Positions 4,098 through 41,726 of a stretch of 64,000 bases of DNA are shown one piece after another; within the stretch, counting starts at the first letter, position 1; the number at the start of each line of letters is the position of its first letter. The DNA comes from Krischvirus LF73P4. The translations under genes and the position numbers were made by a program. Below the pieces are notes generated by a model. That model was given only the letters and a program-made list of their open reading frames with translations. It had not been told where the DNA came from and searched no databases. The stretch lies in the sequence record OZ035795.1. The stretch is one strand, 5' to 3'.

Positions 4098-4126
4098 AGT
4101 ATAGGGGATCGGTGATCCCCTGTCAA
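4098..4126 (-). promoter_or_regulatory. sigma70-type early promoter (PeSL-like)
   Basis: minus strand TTGACA (4121-4126), palindromic spacer GGGGATCACCGATCCCC, TATACT (4098-4103). Confidence 0.7.
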
Positions 4127-4133
4127 CAACTTT

Positions 4134-4442
4134 TTATTCTTCATCTTCATCTTTATCTTGATATGCGTACTTCATAAATTTGTCTGCTACTTTGTCCGCG
4201 TTTTCAGGTTCTACGTCTGACGCTAGGACAACAGCTAGTTCGGTTTTGTCGTTTCCATCATACCAATGATTATGAGTGTCGTTTTCTTCGATATAAAACG
4301 AATCGTTTGGAGTTGTGCGACAATATACGTCTAAATTCCCATCGATATAAAAGATCCAATCCGAATACAAAATGATTGTTTTAGCAAGATTTTTATTGTC
4401 TCTTACAAAAGGTTCCGCGACAAATAGCTTAGTTTGTTCCAT
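4134..4442 (-). CDS. HxHW-motif family protein, paralog 5 (start adjusted to ATG 4442)
   Basis: THNHWY ... AVVLASDV motif; SD2 context. Confidence 0.55.
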   Translation of the reverse strand: MEQTKLFVAEPFVRDNKNLAKTIILYSDWIFYIDGNLDVYCRTTPNDSFYIEENDTHNHWYDGNDKTELAVVLASDVEPENADKVADKFMKYAYQDKDEDEE

Positions 4443-5688: not shown

Positions 5689-6018
5689 TTATGATTTTAG
5701 TGAATTAACCACTACATCAAAATGATGTACAGAGCACACCTTATTAAACACATATTCATCGTGTTTAGGAATAGCCCCTAATCGCTCGATTTCGCTCGCT
5801 GACACGATAAACCGTTTATCAGGTGCATTTACCTTATATGCTTCAACAACGCACGGAAAACGCGTTTTAGAGAGTTCGGGATAGTTTTCTGACTCCATCA
5901 GGACAATGAATACCCTATTACATTGATTGTAGAATCCGGTTTTTGATTTCATCAAGTTTTCTTCTCTGTGAAATTCGTGCAATCTTCCTTTCATGATTTC
6001 GTTGGTTCTTGTCTTCAC
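5689..6018 (-). CDS. hypothetical protein; start uncertain (possible internal ATG at 5994 or 5952)
   Basis: ORF track; last gene of an overlapping operon. Confidence 0.45.
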   Translation of the reverse strand: MKTRTNEIMKGRLHEFHREENLMKSKTGFYNQCNRVFIVLMESENYPELSKTRFPCVVEAYKVNAPDKRFIVSASEIERLGAIPKHDEYVFNKVCSVHHFDVVVNSLKS

Positions 6019-6259
6019 AGTTTACCCACTCAACAAGGTCTTTGCCTAACTCGAAAGCCCATTCTCGGTCCTGCTTTACGTTTTGTAGGTATGGACTTTC
6101 CGACACTCGACGAAGTGATCTTGTCGTAACAAGAATGATCCCAGGAATGTTCGGATGTTCCTTTCCATATACAATAGGACGCGAGTCACTATCAATACCC
6201 TGTAAGAAGGTGTATCCTGAATCACTTAGGATCATATACATTTTCATTTCATCCATCAC
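5918..6259 (-). CDS. hypothetical protein (about 112 aa)
   Basis: ORF track; start overlaps stop of upstream gene (translational coupling). Confidence 0.5.
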   Translation of the reverse strand: MMDEMKMYMILSDSGYTFLQGIDSDSRPIVYGKEHPNIPGIILVTTRSLRRVSESPYLQNVKQDREWAFELGKDLVEWVNCEDKNQRNHERKIARISQRRKLDEIKNRILQSM

Positions 6260-6516
6260 AGTTTCCTCAACCAGTTATTAAAGCGAGTAAACCATGATGC
6301 TTTTCGTGCTTCTTCTTCGGCTTTGCACGCACGCAAACCACTGAAACACCATTCATAATCATCACTGAAACATGATTCAACAGGAACACCCGCATTTCGT
6401 AGTTCTCTGGTCTTTATCATGAATCCTTGACATAAGGGGCGACCTTCAACAATGATAGGAAGTTTAACTTTTTCCATGAAAGTATACCCAGCACGGTCAA
6501 TAATTTCAATTTTCAT
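6256..6516 (-). CDS. hypothetical protein (86 aa)
   Basis: ORF track; coupled start/stop overlap. Confidence 0.5.
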   Translation of the reverse strand: MKIEIIDRAGYTFMEKVKLPIIVEGRPLCQGFMIKTRELRNAGVPVESCFSDDYEWCFSGLRACKAEEEARKASWFTRFNNWLRKL

Positions 6517-7409: not shown

Positions 7410-7700
7410 TCAAATACTGGTTTTGCGAAGATGGTCATTACATGCTTTTAATGCATCAGTCGAGGTGTCATAGCGAGTATTATCATAGCACCAATAACCA
7501 TCTGTCAACTGATAAATTAATCCATCCTTTTTAGCGTCGATGAAAGACAATTCTTTGAAAGTTTCTACTTTCTTTGCTGATACTCCACGGTCACGGCGTT
7601 TATAGAGTTTAGCTAAAATGCGTTCAGCTTGTTCCTCTTTATCGCCAGACAGATCCCAGATGATGTTTCTGATATGCTTGATTAATTGTTCAGTGGTCAT
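7410..7700 (-). CDS. hypothetical protein (96 aa), first gene of operon
   Basis: ATG 7698-7700 with SD1; promoter 7731-7758. Confidence 0.6.
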   Translation of the reverse strand: MTTEQLIKHIRNIIWDLSGDKEEQAERILAKLYKRRDRGVSAKKVETFKELSFIDAKKDGLIYQLTDGYWCYDNTRYDTSTDALKACNDHLRKTSI

Positions 7701-7730
7701 ATTTGATTCTCCTTAGTTGGTATGGTTATC

Positions 7731-7758
7731 ATTATACGGGGATTTCTCCCCGTGTCAA
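7731..7758 (-). promoter_or_regulatory. sigma70-type early promoter (PeSL-like)
   Basis: minus strand TTGACA (7753-7758), spacer CGGGGAGAAATCCCCG, TATAAT (7731-7736). Confidence 0.7.
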
Positions 7759-7761
7759 CAA

Positions 7762-7983
7762 TTAAATGATCTCTGCTTCACCGTTAAGGAAGAAAGACCA
7801 TGTTTTGTTAGGATAACGAAGCGCCCACGATTCAGCAGTTTTAACACCAGCTTCGAACAATTGACGGCTGGTTACTTTAGCCATACCATCTTCGATGGCA
7901 ACGTTTTCAATAATCATCGGGTACTTAGCGCCACGCATGAAACCGAAGCCAGCGGAAGATTTGATAATTTTAACAGTTGCCAT
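7762..7983 (-). CDS. hypothetical protein (start adjusted to ATG 7983)
   Basis: SD1 context before ATG 7981-7983; promoter 8023-8051. Confidence 0.55.
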   Translation of the reverse strand: MATVKIIKSSAGFGFMRGAKYPMIIENVAIEDGMAKVTSRQLFEAGVKTAESWALRYPNKTWSFFLNGEAEII

Positions 7984-8022
7984 TTTTGATTCTCCTAGAA
8001 AGTGTCGTGTTTCGATGGGTGT

Positions 8023-8051
8023 ATTATGCAATAACACCGGATCGCTGTCAA
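8023..8051 (-). promoter_or_regulatory. sigma70-type early promoter (PeSL-like)
   Basis: minus strand TTGACA (8046-8051), 17-nt spacer, CATAAT (8023-8028). Confidence 0.65.
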
Positions 8052-8070
8052 CACTTTCTAAGAAAAATTT

Positions 8071-8355
8071 TTAAACTAATCGAATATAGCCCAGAATTTC
8101 AGCACCTTTAGCCAGTCCTAAAACTTCCCATTCAAGGTCGCCGTAGTCATAATTTGCAACCATCAACTGACCATTTTTCATGCAGCAATCATGAGAGAAA
8201 ATTTGCCCCGCATAAACTACGATAGTAATAAACTTTCCTGATTCTGGCGGTGTGGAAGACAAAGCGACCATATGACCATTCAGCTTAGTAACCAGTGATG
8301 GAACAATAAAATTCGGGCTTACCTTAATACCGTTAAATTCGTTTGTGTCTTTCAT
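8071..8355 (-). CDS. hypothetical protein (94 aa)
   Basis: ORF track; coupled to upstream gene. Confidence 0.5.
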   Translation of the reverse strand: MKDTNEFNGIKVSPNFIVPSLVTKLNGHMVALSSTPPESGKFITIVVYAGQIFSHDCCMKNGQLMVANYDYGDLEWEVLGLAKGAEILGYIRLV

Positions 8356-8702
8356 GCCAGACCTCGCAAAACACTAATAGCATAATCATGCTGGTTATTC
8401 ATAATATCAATTGCATTGTGATAACGAGCTAAACCATCAAGGATAAATTCTTGTTTATCCTGTTTCAGTTTGGTATCACGCGCAGCCATAAGAGCATCAA
8501 GAACAGGTCCAAAGTGATTATCTAATTCATCTTCGGTTGCAATGTTTCCTATTGCCTCGTCGATCCGTGATTCTAATGCTTGCTTTTCGTTGATCACTTG
8601 CTGGGTATATTCCAACACATCAAGAATATCGCGGGTAACGTCGCCATGATAAGGTATTCCCGCATGAAGATGATCAATTAATCGCTGAATATCAATGTTC
8701 AT
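8352..8702 (-). CDS. hypothetical protein (116 aa)
   Basis: ORF track; ATGA overlap with upstream gene. Confidence 0.5.
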   Translation of the reverse strand: MNIDIQRLIDHLHAGIPYHGDVTRDILDVLEYTQQVINEKQALESRIDEAIGNIATEDELDNHFGPVLDALMAARDTKLKQDKQEFILDGLARYHNAIDIMNNQHDYAISVLRGLA

Positions 8703-24124: not shown

Positions 24125-24715
24125 TTACTTTCTAAAAGCAGGGTGCATAGCTTTAATACCTTCCACCCTCTGACGATCCGCCGCCTGAATTGCTGGGCGA
24201 GGAACGATCAGTTGACCATCACGCTCAATGCTCATTGTTTTAAAGGGAAGAATTGCAGTACACACCAGAGATTCATGCATATCATCGGTGTATGTTAACT
24301 CAAGTTCCCCCAATTGTGAACACCAACAACCATAAAAGTTAAAAGTGCACACAATGTTACGTCGTTCGTTGTCCATCATGTGAACTTGAACGGCTTCCGG
24401 CATTGAATCCTTCCACGCAGTGGAGTTACCGTTATTGTAGTCTACTATAGAAAGCATCCATGTGTAAAGGTTTAGATAGCTTTCCAAATGCTCATCGACA
24501 ATAAACCGGACTACCAACGGGTCAAACTCCACATGACTAGACGGATAATCAGCGACCGCCAAACCATATTGACCAGCAACTTGCTTAGTCGGTGGAATGG
24601 TTATAGCCGGAAGTGTAACACCTTGAGCATTTAAAGTAAAGCCTTTTGTTAGTTGTCCATCTGGAATATTGATCTGCCAGTTGCTGGGGTTAGCATAGTT
24701 AAAGAGATTAGACAT
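24125..24715 (-). CDS. hypothetical structural protein (196 aa), downstream of tail fibre genes
   Basis: position in late fibre operon; SD2-like context; no recognisable motif. Confidence 0.4.
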   Translation of the reverse strand: MSNLFNYANPSNWQINIPDGQLTKGFTLNAQGVTLPAITIPPTKQVAGQYGLAVADYPSSHVEFDPLVVRFIVDEHLESYLNLYTWMLSIVDYNNGNSTAWKDSMPEAVQVHMMDNERRNIVCTFNFYGCWCSQLGELELTYTDDMHESLVCTAILPFKTMSIERDGQLIVPRPAIQAADRQRVEGIKAMHPAFRK

Positions 24716-24856
24716 TACTGATTCCTCAAATGAAAATATTTATTAACAATTGTCGCTTTGCGACGTGCCGGAGGCACTGACTACTTTTTAACCGAAACAA
24801 ATTTTCTATTATTCTAAAGATCTTTCTTCGTTTTGGTTATGTTTTAACCAACTGTA

Positions 24857-24886
24857 TAAAAATAAAGCCGACCACGAGGATCGGCT
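24857..24886 (-). terminator. rho-independent terminator (minus strand)
   Basis: AGCCGA/TCGGCT hairpin followed by T-run on minus strand. Confidence 0.6.
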
Positions 24887-24897
24887 TGTTAAAAATG

Positions 24898-26037
24898 TTA
24901 ATCAACATCGAACTCTTTAAAGTTGTTGGATGTGATATGTTTATTGTCTCTAGGTAATTTAAGAAGACTCATAACAGGGTTATCGAAATTGCCGTTATCC
25001 TGAATGTGAGTTGTTCTAATACCGTTAACACCAAATGAAGTAGGACCAGTAGTTTTGACGACTCCACTGATCGGCGTTATTAGTATGTTTCTAATTTTAA
25101 CAATACCTTCATTTGAGTTGGTTGGATATCTGATACAACCAGTGGTAACACTATCAACTCCTTCCGGTACGGTATAGACGGCTTCAAACTTTTCCCATTG
25201 ATCTTTCTGGCTGGCATTATAACGAACGCCAGTTTGATATTGTCCATCAGTGAAGTAGTTGTGATAGAAACGCGCTGTTACGTTGGCTGCGGCTGCGGCA
25301 CTATCACGGAACAATTCAAAGGATATTGATAGTTTGTCACCTGCCTTTATGTTAAAATCTTCAAGTGGTGCGCTGATCTCATCATGAGGCCATTGTATTA
25401 GCTCGAAATGTTCGGCATCTTCGCTAACATATTCAACCGGATAATCTAAAAATCGTTGTGGTGTTCCTGTTATTGCAAGATCGTCTATAGTATCATAAAC
25501 TTTCTCGATCTGTATAGACGAATCTTGACCTTCCCCGTTCGTTGCTTGCATCCCTTCGCACACAATTTTGCCCATTTTAGTAGAATAAATTGCTGCATAG
25601 GATATACGAGGCATTTGCTGTAGCAAAATGTGATTCGGGAATGATACAGATCCCATCTTAGAGAATACAACATCACTTATCGGATCTGCAAACAATTCTC
25701 CATGCGTTGCCATCGCAATGATATAGTCACCTTTCAGCAAAGAGAGATAATCACGCATTGCCAAAACAGCACCGCGACCATAGAATACCTTTTCTTCGTG
25801 TAGTTGTCCAGTTGGAGTAAGAACTTTAAAATTTAGGCCATTTTCATAGCCAGTGCCAACTATCTCCACTCCATTAAATCTAATCCTTGCTGGTTTGGAA
25901 GAATCCGCATTAGATCCGCGCACTTCCAGCTTATACATCACAGAGTTGTTTTCTGAAATGCTTGTAAATGTCGCGGAGTCTTCGTCGAAATGCGCAAACT
26001 TAATTCCAGTATTGCGTAATTCTATCTCTTGTGTCAT
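24898..26037 (-). CDS. putative tail fibre hinge protein (gp35-like by size and position)
   Basis: 379 aa ORF immediately downstream of gp34-like gene; assignment by synteny only. Confidence 0.45.
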   Translation of the reverse strand: MTQEIELRNTGIKFAHFDEDSATFTSISENNSVMYKLEVRGSNADSSKPARIRFNGVEIVGTGYENGLNFKVLTPTGQLHEEKVFYGRGAVLAMRDYLSLLKGDYIIAMATHGELFADPISDVVFSKMGSVSFPNHILLQQMPRISYAAIYSTKMGKIVCEGMQATNGEGQDSSIQIEKVYDTIDDLAITGTPQRFLDYPVEYVSEDAEHFELIQWPHDEISAPLEDFNIKAGDKLSISFELFRDSAAAAANVTARFYHNYFTDGQYQTGVRYNASQKDQWEKFEAVYTVPEGVDSVTTGCIRYPTNSNEGIVKIRNILITPISGVVKTTGPTSFGVNGIRTTHIQDNGNFDNPVMSLLKLPRDNKHITSNNFKEFDVD

Positions 26038-29848: not shown

Positions 29849-29886
29849 AAATAAGGCTTGATAGAAACAAAAGAGGATGATATATT

Positions 29887-30074: not shown

Positions 30075-31022
30075 ATGACGTATAACCCGTTTACAAAAAC
30101 TACCGCTACACTTAATGATTTCTTTGATGATCCAGAAGATAAACTGCCGGAAGGTGTGCATTTGATTGATATGTCGCAGCTTATGATTGCTACTATCTCG
30201 CATACCTTTAAACCGGAAGATCCTATTAATGAAGGCATGATCCGTCATCTTATTCTTGACACCATGCGTTATAATATGACAAAATTCAAAGATCAATACC
30301 CAATCACGGTACTTGCTTTTGATTCAAGCAAAGGTTACTGGCGACGTGATATCGCACCTTACTATAAACGCAACCGTAAGGAAAAACGAGACGCAGATCC
30401 GCGTGATTGGGAGATGATCTTTGCTGCGATCAATAAGATCACCGAAGAGTTTAAAGAGAACATGCCTTATCACGTTATTAAGGTTGACAAAGTTGAAGCA
30501 GATGATATAATCGCTGTGTTAACTAAAAAGTTTTCTGTAGAAGGTCGTAAGGTGCTAATCAACTCCGGCGATGGTGACTACACACAGTTGCACAAATACA
30601 AAAATGTGAAACAGTGGGCGCCAGTACAGAAAGCATGGAAGAAATGCAAATATGGTAGCCCTTACAAAGACCTTATGGTAAAATGTGTTAAGGGTGACGC
30701 AAAAGACGGTGTGGCTTCTGTCAAGTGTCGTAGTGATTTCATTATCTCTCGACTGGAAGGGGAACGAGCTAAACCAGTTCCAACCAAATGGTTGGAGCAA
30801 ATTTTCGATGCCGATGATCCAAAGTCTTTGATGACAGAGGAAGAAGCACGACGATTTGACGAAAACCGCGAACTTATTGATTTCGATTACATCCCAGATG
30901 ATATTCAGAATCAGATTCTGGAGTCATGGGAAAAATCTAAACCAGCACCACGCGGTAAAATTTATAACTATTTTGTAACAAATGCGTTAGTTAAAATGTT
31001 GCAGAAAATTAGTGAGTTCTAA
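30075..31022 (+). CDS. rnh: RNase H / 5'-3' exonuclease (T4 rnh-like FEN)
   Basis: KGYWRRDIAPYYKRNR, EADDIIAVL, SGDGDYTQLHKYKNVKQW and C-terminal PRGKIYNYFV match T4 RNase H. Confidence 0.9.
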   Translation: MTYNPFTKTTATLNDFFDDPEDKLPEGVHLIDMSQLMIATISHTFKPEDPINEGMIRHLILDTMRYNMTKFKDQYPITVLAFDSSKGYWRRDIAPYYKRNRKEKRDADPRDWEMIFAAINKITEEFKENMPYHVIKVDKVEADDIIAVLTKKFSVEGRKVLINSGDGDYTQLHKYKNVKQWAPVQKAWKKCKYGSPYKDLMVKCVKGDAKDGVASVKCRSDFIISRLEGERAKPVPTKWLEQIFDADDPKSLMTEEEARRFDENRELIDFDYIPDDIQNQILESWEKSKPAPRGKIYNYFVTNALVKMLQKISEF

Positions 31023-31032
31023 GGGTTGACAT

Positions 31033-31632
31033 ATGAAAGAACTTGAATTAAAATACTATGCACACTCACAAATTGGCGTCGAAACCATCTGTGATTTGTG
31101 GGTGGCAATGTATGACGGATACAATCTCTTAGACCGAGATAACATTCTAAAACACGAATTTTATTATGATACCGAAGATCATGCGCTACGTCAAAAAGGA
31201 ATTTATGCACGACTTGACTGTCGAAAATCAGAGATCATGGTCAAAATGGGTGATAATGAATCTGGACTATTCAACCGCGAGGAAATGACATTTTCAAATT
31301 GGGATGAGTTTGTCCATTTTATTGATAGTATAGGGGTAAACTCAGACTATATCACTACAACAATGCAAGTAATGACATATCGCAAGTCATTGACTATAGA
31401 TATGGGTTGTGGTATAGTGGAAATGTGCAAAGACACTTTCTATTATGGCAAAGTAGGCGAAGGATTGGGCGACACTGCTCATTATGAACTTGAGTTCGAG
31501 TTAAAATCAGGTGATGAAAAAGCACTTGACATTATCCGAGAAATGATGCTAGAATATGTGGGTGACGATTTACGTCCTAGCGAAATCTCAAAAGCTGAAC
31601 GTGGTTTTCAATTAATGACGAAAGAGGGTTAA
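31033..31632 (+). CDS. CYTH-domain protein (triphosphate tunnel metalloenzyme-like)
   Basis: N-terminal ELELK (ExExK), YYDTEDHALRQKGIYARLDCRK and C-terminal HYELEFELK (ExExE) signatures. Confidence 0.55.
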   Translation: MKELELKYYAHSQIGVETICDLWVAMYDGYNLLDRDNILKHEFYYDTEDHALRQKGIYARLDCRKSEIMVKMGDNESGLFNREEMTFSNWDEFVHFIDSIGVNSDYITTTMQVMTYRKSLTIDMGCGIVEMCKDTFYYGKVGEGLGDTAHYELEFELKSGDEKALDIIREMMLEYVGDDLRPSEISKAERGFQLMTKEG

Positions 31633-31636
31633 TATT

Positions 31637-31912
31637 ATGACTGAACAGAAAAAAGAAAAAGTAGTATTTGACGAAAATGTACACGGAAATACCCTGGCAC
31701 AACTGATTAAAGAAGCCAGCGATCAGAAAACCATTCAAGAAGCATACGGCGATAAGATCAAAGAGATCAAACAGCGTGCTAAAGAAGAATTAGGCGTAGA
31801 CGGTAAAATGTGGGGCATTCTGTTTAAACTGTATCACCAGCAACAGCGCGAAACCTTCGAAGCAGAACGCGATGAAGCGGTAGAACTCTATGATCGGGTG
31901 TTCAATGCTTAA
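31637..31912 (+). CDS. hypothetical protein (91 aa); position corresponds to T4 dsbA/33 region
   Basis: SD2-like AAGAGGGTTAATATT-ATG; synteny only. Confidence 0.5.
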   Translation: MTEQKKEKVVFDENVHGNTLAQLIKEASDQKTIQEAYGDKIKEIKQRAKEELGVDGKMWGILFKLYHQQQRETFEAERDEAVELYDRVFNA

Positions 31913-32159
31913 TGAACATGCGGTAAAAGCCGCGAATAAAACAGCAAACGGTCTTGCAATCGAAAAACTGGTTGTTGAAGAGGGATTGACTTATCTTGAA
32001 GCGACCACTCAGTTTGTAGAGGAAAACTCTATCGAATATGGTCACTATCAGAAATATATTCCGGTGTCCATTATTGACAAGATCACACAAGAATGTATAG
32101 TAAATAGAACGCTCAGGAAGGGAGTGATCGACGAACCGACCAACACTCTCGATATTTAA
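31890..32159 (+). CDS. hypothetical protein (about 85 aa); possible late-transcription accessory protein by position
   Basis: ORF track; start may be ATG 31905; synteny between rnh and gene 59. Confidence 0.45.
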   Translation: MIGCSMLNEHAVKAANKTANGLAIEKLVVEEGLTYLEATTQFVEENSIEYGHYQKYIPVSIIDKITQECIVNRTLRKGVIDEPTNTLDI

Positions 32160-32168
32160 GGGGTATGT

Positions 32169-32849
32169 ATGATCAGAAACCGTCTTCCTCCAGATCCAGA
32201 TATGCGAATTAATGCTAAATCTGTGTATATGTTATATTGCATGATGAAAGCTCACATGAACGGGCGTTATGATTGCGTAAAATACAATTGGAGGATGCGG
32301 TTGTCTGATGCCGCATTCAATAAACGCAGAGATAAGTATTATTTCGCAAAATTAGCGGAAAAGTACAATCTAAGAGAATTATACTTCCTATTCCTAAGCA
32401 ATCTGGTAGCTAATACCGATGCATGGGTAGGTGAAATCACTGATGTTGACGCATACGGCTTTTATATGGAATACATAGGAAAGATAACCGATGCAGCAAC
32501 ACGATTTGACGATGACATTAAAAGTCTGGTATACTTCTCCGAGAAACGCGGGGTTACTCTTAAAGAGCTAATTACATACAATCCCACAACCGAAACAAGC
32601 GGTATCTTTAAACTACTGCAAAATCGGATTATATCGTTTGAGTCGTTTATGTTGTTAGATAGCTTTCTAAATATAATCGACGAACACGACAAGGTAGCCA
32701 AAGACTTGATTTGGCAAACTTATAGTGTTAAAATGAAGGCGTACAAGAAACTACTTGTTATTGACGCCGCAAAAGCAAGAGCATTATTTGTTAAAGTAGT
32801 TAAAGAGTGTAAAGAAATATCTCAATTAAAAGCCGAAACAAATAGTTGA
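32169..32849 (+). CDS. 59: helicase loader (T4 gp59-like)
   Basis: KSVYMLYCMMKAHMNGRYDCVKYNWRMRLSDAAFNKRRDKYYF and ISFESFMLLDSFLNIIDEHD closely match T4 gp59. Confidence 0.85.
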   Translation: MIRNRLPPDPDMRINAKSVYMLYCMMKAHMNGRYDCVKYNWRMRLSDAAFNKRRDKYYFAKLAEKYNLRELYFLFLSNLVANTDAWVGEITDVDAYGFYMEYIGKITDAATRFDDDIKSLVYFSEKRGVTLKELITYNPTTETSGIFKLLQNRIISFESFMLLDSFLNIIDEHDKVAKDLIWQTYSVKMKAYKKLLVIDAAKARALFVKVVKECKEISQLKAETNS

Positions 32850-32873
32850 CAAGTAAATTTAAATCTGTATAAT
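32846..32873 (+). promoter_or_regulatory. sigma70-type promoter
   Basis: TTGACA (32846-32851), 16-nt spacer, TATAAT (32868-32873). Confidence 0.6.
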
Positions 32874-32903
32874 AGTCTAGTAAATTAATCAAAAGAAGGA
32901 ATA

Positions 32904-33878
32904 GTGAATATGTTTAAACGCCAAGATTCTTCCAAACTGCAAGCTCAACTGGCCTCACTGAAAGGTGGCAACGGTTTCTCCAAAGAAGATCCGAAAGAGT
33001 GGAAGATTAAGACTGATGCAGCAGGTAACGGTGAAGCCCTGATTCGCTTCCTGCCGTCTAAGACAGAAGACGGTCTGCCGATTGTGAAACTGGTAAACCA
33101 TTCCTTCAAAGTTAATGGCAAATGGTATTGGGAAAACTGCTCCAGCACCCACGGTGATTTTGATTCTTGCCCTGTGTGCAAATATATTAACGAAAAAGAC
33201 CTGTACAATACCGATAAAACCGAATGGCAACTGATTAAGCGTAAAGCGTCTTACTACGCAAACATTCTGGTACTGAAAGATCCTCAAGCACCAGAAAATG
33301 AAGGTAAGGTATTCAAATTCCGCTTCGGTCAGAAAATTTATGATAAGATCGTTGCAATGGTGAACGTGAATACCGATATGGGCGAAGTTCCGGTAGATGT
33401 AACTTGTGTGTTCTCCGGTGCTAACTTCCTCCTGAAAGCTAAGAAGGTTGATAAACACCAGAACTATGATGATTCTCGTTTCATGCAGCAATCACAGCTT
33501 CCGAAAATTGAAGACGAAGCATATCAGAAATATCTGATGGAAAACATGGTTGATCTGGGTGAGATTGTAGCGCCTAGCCAGTTTAAACCGTTCGATGAAC
33601 TGGAAACCAAATTTAAGAAAACTATGGGCGTTTCTATGGTAGCTGGTGCTGCGGCTTCCAGTGCTGCGGCAGCGATTAACAGTCAGCTTGACGATTTTGA
33701 CGCACAGATGAATGCATTCGACTCTGGTATTACCGCAGCTAGCACTGTAGTTGGTATTAACGCAGCTAGCACGGCGTTAGATTCTTCCGCTGATGACCTG
33801 ATGGCATCGCTGGATCTGGGTGGCGGTACTTCCTCCGCTTCTGATCTGGATGACCTGGACTCACTTCTGAATCTGTAA
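32904..33878 (+). CDS. 32: single-stranded DNA-binding protein (T4 gp32-like)
   Basis: [40 protein letters not shown] zinc-binding segment match T4 gp32. Confidence 0.9.
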
Positions 33879-34344: not shown

Positions 34345-34926
34345 ATGATTCAATGTGTATTTGCGATTGGTGACACTAAAATGTCGGATGAAAATTGGGC
34401 TTTTGGTTTTAAAGGCGGTTTACCGTGGGGTCGTCCAATCAAAAAGGACATGGAAAACTTTAAAATGCGCACTATGGGAGATGTTGATCTTGCGGCGGTT
34501 GTAATGGGACGCAATACCTTTGAAAGTCTTCCTAAAGCACTGGAAGGTCGTGTGAATGTGGTTGTTAGTACCGATACCAGTAAGCCAGCACCGAAAGCAA
34601 AAAACGGCGAACAACCTGATGTGTATACCGCGATTACTAATGATGGTGGATTGAAGGAATTATTAGAAGTCATAGAGAAATTGCAAGGTTTGGTAAGCGT
34701 TATCGGCGGACCTTCCCTGATTGAAAAAGCGGTTGACTTTGCGGACCGTATTGTGTTAACGTATGTTCAACGTTCAGGGGTCAACGATCCATTTGAATAT
34801 GATGTTGGTATCTCTAAGGAAATGATTCAGGAATTATATTTTGATTTTGCAACAAAAGAAGAACATAATTACTTCCTTGATGATTACCTGATCAGCGAAC
34901 AAATTTTAGAACGTAAGAAGGCGTAA
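34345..34926 (+). CDS. frd: dihydrofolate reductase
   Basis: GLPWGRP and VIGGPSL DHFR motifs; position next to td as in T4. Confidence 0.8.
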   Translation: MIQCVFAIGDTKMSDENWAFGFKGGLPWGRPIKKDMENFKMRTMGDVDLAAVVMGRNTFESLPKALEGRVNVVVSTDTSKPAPKAKNGEQPDVYTAITNDGGLKELLEVIEKLQGLVSVIGGPSLIEKAVDFADRIVLTYVQRSGVNDPFEYDVGISKEMIQELYFDFATKEEHNYFLDDYLISEQILERKKA

Positions 34927-40562: not shown

Positions 40563-41726
40563 ATGAGCGTATTTAACCGCGAACATGTTGATATTATGAA
40601 CGAACCGATGTTTCTGGGTAGTGGGTTGGGTATCGCTCGCTATGATATTCAGCGTCATCAAGTATTTGAAGAATTAATTGAAAAATCTCTGTCATTTTTC
40701 TGGCGTCCAGAAGAGATTTCACTTGCAACCGACCGCATTCAATATCTTAATATGGGTGACGTTGAAAAGCGTTTCTTTACCGAAAACTTGAAGTATCAGA
40801 CATTACTTGATTCTATTCAAGGTCGCGCACCGTCCGCAGCATTTGGTCCAATTGTATCTGATCCAACTCTCGATACATGGTTGCAAACATGGACATTCAG
40901 CGAAACGATTCATAGCAGAAGCTATACACACATTATGCGTAACTGTTTCATTGATCCGGCTAGTGAGTTCGACCAGATCATCGATAACCCTGCTATCATG
41001 AAGCGAGCGGAATCTATCGGGAAATATTATGATGATGTTCTGGTGAAAATCCGTGAATACGAGGACGCTAAAGAAAGTTTTAGTCGTTCTTCTGAAAATG
41101 AATTTGACCTTGATGCATATTCTGATAGCATTTCGTACGTGGAAGAAACTAAACGCAATCTGATGGAATCACTCTATCTGTGTATGCATTGCGTTAATGC
41201 ACTGGAGGCAATCCGTTTTTATGTGTCCTTTGCATGTACTTTCAGCTTTGCCGAACGTGGTTTACTGGAAGGTAACGCGAAGATCATGAAATTTATTGCG
41301 CGTGATGAACAACTTCACTTAAAAGGCACACAATACATTATTCGTCAATGGCAAACGGGGGTTGATGGTGATGAGTGGAAACAGATTGCGGAAGAACTTG
41401 AAGGCGAAGCAACGAAAATCTTTCTGGATGTTGTCGAGCAAGAAAAAGAATGGGTAGACCACCTATTCGCAATGGGGTCAATTCCTGGCTTGTCACCGGA
41501 AATTCTGAAAACTTATGTAGAATACCTGGCAGATTCCCGTATGCGTGCTGTCGGACTGAAAAGCCCGTTTAGTGTTCGTCGTCATCCTTTACCGTGGATG
41601 CGTAAGTGGTTAAACTCTGACGAAGTACAGAATGCAGCGCAAGAAGTAGAGATTATGTATCTGGTATCTCAGGTTAATACCGATTTAACAGACGATGACT
41701 ACAACCGATTCGGGAAATATCTATGA
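40563..41726 (+). CDS. nrdB: ribonucleotide reductase class Ia, small subunit
   Basis: diiron/tyrosyl radical protein signature segments; 387 aa; SD2-like GTGAGGTGAATTA-ATG. Confidence 0.95.
   Translation: MSVFNREHVDIMNEPMFLGSGLGIARYDIQRHQVFEELIEKSLSFFWRPEEISLATDRIQYLNMGDVEKRFFTENLKYQTLLDSIQGRAPSAAFGPIVSDPTLDTWLQTWTFSETIHSRSYTHIMRNCFIDPASEFDQIIDNPAIMKRAESIGKYYDDVLVKIREYEDAKESFSRSSENEFDLDAYSDSISYVEETKRNLMESLYLCMHCVNALEAIRFYVSFACTFSFAERGLLEGNAKIMKFIARDEQLHLKGTQYIIRQWQTGVDGDEWKQIAEELEGEATKIFLDVVEQEKEWVDHLFAMGSIPGLSPEILKTYVEYLADSRMRAVGLKSPFSVRRHPLPWMRKWLNSDEVQNAAQEVEIMYLVSQVNTDLTDDDYNRFGKYL

Follow-up and report, generated by a model that had tools for sequence, protein, structure and literature searches.

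A CYTH/triphosphate-tunnel protein gene with exchangeable allele cassettes between rnh and dsbA of Krischvirus LF73P4

The locus and its CYTH gene

The DNA considered here is a stretch of 64,000 nucleotides from Krischvirus LF73P4 (OZ035795.1), referred to below as the window. At 31033-31632 on its plus strand lies a gene, running from ATG to TAA, for a 199-residue protein of the CYTH/triphosphate tunnel metalloenzyme (TTM) superfamily, the orthologue of RB49 ORF244c. Its upstream neighbour, across a gap of 10 nt, is rnh (30075-31022, plus strand), which encodes the T4-type RNase H/5'-3' exonuclease (Pfam RNaseH_C, 3.4e-39; 5_3_exonuc_N, 8.7e-18). A Shine-Dalgarno-like AAGGG (31021-31025, plus strand) overlaps the rnh stop codon, 7 nt ahead of the ATG, and is kept in all Krischvirus alleles. 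Downstream, after 4 nt, comes dsbA (31637-31912, plus strand), the gene of a late-transcription double-stranded DNA-binding protein (Phage_DsbA, 5.4e-22), followed on the same strand by gene 33 for the late-transcription co-activator (31890-32159; Trans_coact, 1.8e-26) and gene 59 for the helicase loader (32169-32849; T4_Gp59_N and T4_Gp59_C). Gene 32, beyond gene 59, is likewise named by Pfam. T2, which was the only T-even genome examined, has no CYTH gene in this slot; there the order runs straight from rnh to dsbA, 33, 59 and 32. The gene is an extra one relative to the T-even phages. A first-pass annotation, made from the sequence alone, had given exactly these coordinates and had placed the gene between rnh and gene 59, where, in its account, T4 has only two small late-transcription genes; T2 bears out that order, the exact slot being the one between rnh and dsbA.

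The region is 99.8% identical to that of Escherichia phage vB-Eco-KMB43 and 95-97% identical to those of Phi1, RB49 and JSE, which places the window in the genus Krischvirus (RB49 group). A tblastn search finds the CYTH protein in 58 phage records, every one of them a Krischvirus, as against 1,574 records with an RNase H orthologue. The rnh/dsbA slot is common to all 58 cultured relatives. Protein identity to the window is 80-99% in 56 of these genomes, 57% in Skers and 79.7%, in two pieces, in G2494. Most GenBank entries label the product hypothetical, while four call it 'adenylate cyclase' and two 'inorganic triphosphatase'. The domain assignment is not new, since the original RB49 GenBank entry carries the note 'similar to P45267, P30871, HI1598, ygiF' and Nolan et al. 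2006 list 'RB49ORF244c, CYTH domain, E = 0.0026' (PMC1524935); for the gene family it has been on record since 2003-2006. The same paper reports that RB49 is without nudE and without the bifunctional Nudix gene of other T4-like phages (PMC1524935).

Two checks had been set beforehand for the CYTH interpretation, a profile or structural match and the presence of the acidic tunnel residues, and it passed both. The profile match lies above the curated threshold: Pfam CYTH (PF01928) matches residues 27-191 with 26.9 bits (E 4.9e-6), where the gathering cutoff is 23.2, and is also precomputed for most relatives in the cluster. Searched singly against the Protein Data Bank (PDB) with phmmer, the protein gives marginal matches only; a profile of 14 family members is needed to reach E. 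coli YgiF, the one PDB sequence that it matches. Neither NCBIfam nor PADLOC returned a match for the protein. An AlphaFold model built on the family alignment is confident (pLDDT 90.9, pTM 0.84) and forms an eight-stranded beta-barrel tunnel closed by a C-terminal plug helix (residues 187-196). Its best structural neighbour is YgiF, below which stand BH2851, plant TTM3-like proteins, thiamine triphosphatase, archaeal TTMs and viral and fungal RNA triphosphatases; the best neighbours are all triphosphate-tunnel enzymes, and Med18 and Med20 are also among the fold matches. The acidic tunnel residues are present and invariant in the sequence alignments. The gene is real, its product is a small CYTH/triphosphate-tunnel protein, and the earlier CYTH interpretation is supported.

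An exhaustive profile search of 1.84 billion representatives returned three sequences at E <= 1e-30 and six at E <= 1e-10, followed by a weak tail of stand-alone proteins of ~200 amino acids and of others of ~500, a length that fits CYTH-CHAD fusions. The divergent relatives come from this search and from exact-protein look-ups; a pattern scan of IMG/VR gave only three near-identical loci. According to the look-ups, the relatives at 66%, 59%, 50%, 41% and 30% identity are all encoded immediately upstream of dsbA, and in these uncultured relatives gene 33 follows dsbA and rnh lies upstream wherever the contig reaches. The next relative, P0046, is cellular and lies on an archaeal contig beside a PRK-family kinase. 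The overall GC content and the third-position GC content (GC3) of the CYTH gene match those of the adjoining phage genes. This match, together with the same slot in distant relatives, indicates that the gene has long been part of the Krischvirus lineage and was not captured recently. In particular, recent capture of a host ygiF was considered and rejected, given the 22% identity, the missing CHAD domain, the phage-like GC and GC3 and the occupation of the same slot where the flanks are only 63-80% identical. In Krischvirus and its uncultured relatives it is an old accessory gene specific to the lineage.

An allele cassette within the gene

DNA identity of the window to Skers and to RB49 was followed in sliding 50-nt blocks. 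Against Skers, almost all blocks of orf61, rnh, dsbA, 33, 59 and 32 reach 92-100%; outside the CYTH gene, the exceptions are one late-rnh block (72%) and those near the junction of genes 59 and 32. From ~31051 to 31500 identity falls to 46-66%, and against RB49 there it is 74-94%. The diverged part is an exchangeable allele cassette of codons 10-150 (31060-31482, plus strand) with sharp bounds at two glutamate motifs. Both breakpoints are exact. On the left, the first 26 nt (MKELELKYY) are common to all Krischvirus alleles; on the right, the alleles are identical again from codon Y151 (TAT GAA CTT GAG TTC GAG). These bounds coincide with motifs that the first-pass annotation had picked out. 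The ELELK (ExExK) that it saw at the N-terminus is there, the protein opening with MKELELK. The HYELEFELK that it took for the protein's end is present at residues 150-158, but 41 further residues lie behind it.

Flanking proteins are 93-100% identical, while over residues 8-150 identity to the window is 78% for RB49, 56% for P0034, 42% for P0041 and 41% for Skers. The lowest of these values matches that of an uncultured relative in which the flanking proteins, too, have diverged, to 77-80% identity. Clustering of 45 sequences separates at least four deep lineages in Krischvirus backbones, 41-62% identical to one another: a supergroup of the window and RB49, P0034, the Skers type and the P0041 type. 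The allele of the window is of the Phi1/KMB43 type, that of RB49 a different sub-allele (78% in the body). The cassettes of Skers and of two metagenomic lineages differ deeply from it (41-57%). Over the 31 kb of the window that can be aligned with Skers, no other aligned block is as large or as divergent as the cassette; elsewhere, drops in identity are short or stem from insertions and deletions such as homing endonucleases.

By the Nei-Gojobori method, synonymous divergence (dS) between the classes is saturated in the cassette (at least 2, or not computable), with a ratio of nonsynonymous to synonymous divergence (dN/dS) of 0.18-0.30. In the flanking genes and in the 3' end of the CYTH gene dS is 0.02-0.28. 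Because of the saturated dS and the low dN/dS, fast adaptive change in place is not the explanation, and rapid positive selection in situ was rejected. Special selection on the 3' end is not needed either: dS there (0.035-0.11) equals that of the backbone, so that this end simply lies outside the exchanged cassette. Judged from these comparisons, the cassettes appear to be ancient functional alleles that were moved into, or kept within, young backbones via recombination at the two motif-coding ends.

The conservation across the lineages has a regular pattern. Residues that are invariant in all of them recur at i, i+2 on every strand (E3/E5/K7/Y9, Y44/D46, R60/D62, K71/G73, F80/R82/E84, T115/R117, T121/D123, C132/D134/F136/Y138 and E152/E154/E156/K158), and the variable sites are the helices and the in-between positions. 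This is what an inward-facing tunnel lining would be expected to give. The allele diversity could stem from balancing selection in a conflict with the host, or the core could have persisted neutrally because it is too diverged for recombination.

A segment swapped within a near-identical backbone recalls the mosaic exchange and the hyperplastic regions of T4-like genomes, which are well established (reviewed in PMC2993671). Here, by contrast, the unit is intragenic, is bounded by the coding sequences of two catalytic motifs and is always replaced by a functional homologue, and it involves neither gain or loss of whole ORFs nor insertion of a homing endonuclease. As far as our searches show, neither the cassette polymorphism nor the clade-specific Arg-to-Asp change considered below has been described before.

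Smaller dips against Skers (72-82%, in a backbone of ~97%) occur at 1601-1700, 4101-4400, 34601-34700 and 41001-41200. The third of them falls inside an ORF (34345-34926) whose counterpart in KMB43 is annotated as dihydrofolate reductase. Two typical mobile insertions of this cluster are found in Skers and not in the window: a gene for an HNH homing endonuclease that separates genes 59 and 32 (5802-6398 of the Skers locus; ~32850-32903 in the window) and one for a GIY-YIG nuclease directly behind gene 32 (7554-8597 of the locus; ~33900 in the window). The mechanically called ORF of gene 32 begins at a GTG (32904-32912, MNMFKRQ...). As the RB49 annotation is two codons shorter, the true start is probably the ATG at 32910.

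The window as a whole is collinear with none of the 58 reference Krischvirus genomes. Its positions 2-24851, ending with the dNMP kinase gene and the gene 3 tail-completion gene (minus strand), map to one genome region. The part from ~24898 onwards (the gene 35 hinge gene and then gene 34, minus strand) corresponds to a region far away from the first and runs the other way round. At the joint between the two (24852-24897, context 23453-26037) the distal tail-fibre genes 36, 37 and 38 are absent. The joint could have come about by a genuine inversion or rearrangement, through chimeric assembly, or because the window was constructed. Around the CYTH gene, ~6 kb away, the synteny is normal.

Tunnel residues and predicted activity

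Residues were mapped by MAFFT alignments with YgiF and eleven other relatives and by direct indexing, and their conservation was scored over the 45 family sequences. In YgiF, E4, E6 and E162 bind metal 2 (Martinez et al. 2015, PMC4641920), E160 is a metal 1 ligand that is invariant in all TTMs characterised by 2015, R56 is the catalytic arginine and K69 aids substrate binding (PMC4641920). Each of these has its counterpart in the phage protein, encoded on the plus strand as follows. The ExExK motif (31039-31053) supplies E3 and E5 of metal site 2, and K7, equivalent to YgiF E4, E6 and K8 and invariant in 45 of 45. R60, in the R60-L61-D62 strand (31210-31218), corresponds to YgiF R56 as well as to the catalytic R52 of AtTTM3, and K71 (31243-31245), the substrate-binding lysine, to YgiF K69; both are again invariant in all 45. 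The segment YYDTEDHALRQKGIYARLDCRK, which the first-pass annotation had quoted, is found at residues 44-65. In the R82-E83-E84 strand (31276-31284), R82 equals YgiF R81 and E84 equals E83, both invariant, and the invariant R117 (31381-31383) aligns with the arginine of the YgiF 'FYREKW' motif. In E152-L-E154-F-E156 (31486-31500), likewise invariant, E154 is the metal-1 glutamate (YgiF E160) and E156 the third glutamate of the acidic patch (YgiF E162). Finally, S186-K187-A-E-R190-G191 (31588-31605) forms on the plug helix the SKxxRG motif typical of the YgiF branch, which is invariant or nearly so in the phage clade as well as in YgiF-like relatives from bacteria.

The sole departure from the YgiF set is D62, which replaces R58, so that the basic tunnel set lacks the second arginine of R-x-R. 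Aspartate is invariant at this position in 43 sequences and is also found in P0044; P0045, the deepest member, has asparagine, and the aligned bacterial and archaeal relatives keep arginine. A HMMER register that pairs R60 with YgiF R58 was rejected, as MAFFT alignments with many relatives and the conserved G-x-x-[LA]-R spacing equate R60 with R56. The second arginine is typical of the family and not strictly defining. The AtTTM3 mutant R54A, altered at the equivalent of position 62, stays active and is not strongly impaired (PMC4641920). YpAC-IV has methionine there (VLREM, its true sequence as confirmed against the PDB). These two cases argue that D62 reflects altered substrate binding and not lost activity; on sequence grounds it suggests an altered specificity.

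YgiF (PDB 5a60/5a61), a CYTH-CHAD inorganic triphosphatase, is the best match by both profile and structure and shares with the phage protein the acidic patch, the metal-1 glutamate, the catalytic arginine, K69 and the plug-helix motif. The two differ in that they are only 22% identical, in length (199 against 433 residues) and in the aspartate for R58. The phage protein also lacks the polyphosphate-binding CHAD domain, ending right after the plug helix with dsbA 4 nt on; this stand-alone state is also seen in many weak relatives of ~200 amino acids. The orthologues closest at hand, RB49 ORF244c and those of other Krischvirus genomes (PHROG 14893), are the same gene in the same position.

From these features the product is most likely a phosphate-cleaving hydrolase and not a synthase of cyclic AMP (cAMP). 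Of the two roles that the first-pass annotation had proposed, hydrolysis of a triphosphate is favoured and cAMP synthesis disfavoured. By homology, the default substrate would be tripolyphosphate (PPPi): YgiF is a specific tripolyphosphatase that hydrolyses thiamine triphosphate slowly, shows no detectable cyclase activity and does not hydrolyse ATP, GTP, ITP, pyrophosphate or long polyphosphate (PMC3440374). By analogy with YgiF and AtTTM3, a triphosphate-metal complex would bind in the tunnel, held through its phosphates by K7, K71, R82, R117 and the plug-helix residues K187 and R190. E154 would complete metal site 1. E3, E5 and E156 would hold a second Mg2+ or Mn2+ that activates water, and R60 would polarise the beta-gamma bridging oxygen, whereupon the terminal phosphate of a small triphosphate substrate would be hydrolysed. 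Taken together, it is probable that the gene encodes a stand-alone, catalytically competent TTM of the YgiF branch and is an old Krischvirus accessory gene, its central 141 codons being exchanged by recombination as ancient cassettes. Of this picture, the analysis shows the fold, the conserved residues, the synteny and how the alleles are built, while the activity, the substrate and the time of expression are inferred.

Several points weigh against this proposal. The Pfam score exceeds its threshold by just 3.7 bits, and no functional test of any phage CYTH protein was found in the literature. D62 places an acidic side chain where every characterised hydrolase examined has arginine, and therefore the affinity for the substrate, or its identity, may differ. 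In E. coli extracts the bulk of PPPi hydrolysis is due to inorganic pyrophosphatase, and the authors of that study doubt that PPPi is the physiological substrate of YgiF (PMC3440374); a phage tripolyphosphatase would therefore look redundant. In one of the 58 genomes, G2494 (MK327935.1), a 1-nt deletion at locus nt 474 (CYTH codon 58-59) splits the gene into two annotated ORFs with the rest intact. Either the gene was inactivated very recently or the sequence is in error; unless the latter holds, the gene may be dispensable in culture.

An alternative, which we consider unlikely, is a triphosphatase that acts not on PPPi but on the 5'-triphosphate of a nucleic acid or nucleotide signal, the cassettes being the product of an arms race. 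The candidates would be 5'-triphosphate (5'-ppp) RNA primers or transcripts, processed with the adjacent RNase H or in RNA decay, or else a triphosphate alarmone or immune signal, hydrolysed as counter-defence. In mRNA 5'-triphosphatases from fungi and from large DNA viruses (Cet1, mimivirus, vaccinia D1), the tunnel is the same fold as in the phage protein, and strands 1 and 8 carry the same metal-binding glutamates (PMC4641920). The structural Z scores of the phage protein to RNA 5'-triphosphatases are lower, 10-12.6, and unlike the capping enzymes it has no fused or partner guanylyltransferase: Pfam finds no such domain in the CYTH protein or in rnh, dsbA, 33, 59 and 32, the immediate neighbours being rnh and dsbA. 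Adjacency in T4-like genomes is, moreover, often functionally meaningless. YgiF is inactive on ATP, GTP and ITP (PMC3440374), PADLOC gave no match, and no link between CYTH proteins and defence or counter-defence was found in the literature, where searches on these subjects and on Krischvirus with adenylate cyclase yielded nothing functional. As to the arms race, the variable residues lie outside the tunnel, so that the substrate is probably the same in all alleles, and the allele pattern could arise without selection if recombination homogenises the flanks but cannot act on the divergent core.

It seems decidedly doubtful that the protein is a nucleotidyl or adenylyl cyclase of the class IV type, making cAMP or another cyclic nucleotide and so reprogramming host cAMP-CRP regulation or disturbing signalling. 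TTM hydrolases and CyaB do have a common fold and two-metal chemistry (PMC4641920), some TTM3-like plant proteins have been reported as cyclases, and 8h92 and 6yp4 are among the structural matches. Like CyaB and YpAC-IV (PDB 2fjt, 3n0y), the phage protein has ExExK and no second arginine on the R-x-R strand. Four phage records, as noted, name the gene adenylate cyclase, but CYTH proteins are routinely over-annotated in this way (PMC3440374). The nearest relative is the tripolyphosphatase YgiF and not a member of the CyaB clade, and the model is structurally much farther from the class IV cyclase than from YgiF. The metal sites also differ. CyaB completes metal site 2 with His-122 (PMC4641920). 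In an alignment of the phage protein with YpAC-IV anchored on the conserved motifs (A4, 17% identity), E130, in the E130-M-C132-K-D134 strand (31420-31434, plus strand), stands at the position of H122 and E156 at that of A138. Unlike YpAC-IV, the phage protein and YgiF have glutamate at the His-122 position and keep the third glutamate of the acidic patch.

That the protein is a non-catalytic ligand binder, sponge or structural partner, like the eukaryotic Med18 and Med20, is very improbable: the lost tunnel arginine (D62), the fold matches to Med18 and Med20 and the frameshift in G2494 would fit, but the metal ligands and R60 are invariant across lineages with saturated synonymous sites, which is hard to explain without catalysis or at least binding of a metal-triphosphate complex.

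Expression and possible role in infection

A candidate early promoter, sigma-70-like (10/12 consensus positions, with extended TG), lies upstream of orf61-rnh-CYTH at 29858-29886, and a possible internal early promoter with a 12/12 sigma-70 consensus match lies inside rnh at 30484-30511, directed towards the CYTH gene; both are on the plus strand. The late-promoter motif closest by, TATAAATA, lies on the other strand and serves gene 34. These matches, together with the tight packing of the genes, suggest early co-transcription with rnh, and the CYTH gene is probably transcribed before replication together with rnh. Another near-consensus sigma-70 match (TTGACA, 18 nt, TAGAAT, with extended TG) is found inside the conserved 3' end of the CYTH gene (31526-31555, plus strand). 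The site is ~80 nt ahead of dsbA and could serve as a separate early promoter for dsbA, 33 and 59.

A quite speculative and unlikely reading is that the enzyme takes part in phage-host conflict, destroying or generating a triphosphate small molecule or a 5'-ppp end in immunity or stress signalling, with its exterior under balancing or frequency-dependent selection. Such selection on the exterior would explain the presence of at least four ancient cassettes with an invariant tunnel in near-identical genomes. If this were true, D62 would tune the enzyme away from inorganic PPPi, and the exterior may escape a host inhibitor or sensor.

The present analysis gives concrete ground for correcting the 'adenylate cyclase' annotations, which are probably wrong. 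In the literature searched, no report was found that characterises a phage member of this widespread enzyme fold. A conserved catalytic interior combined with an ancient, diverged exterior is a signature that often marks host-interaction genes, and the Krischvirus alleles are natural variants ready for experimental use.
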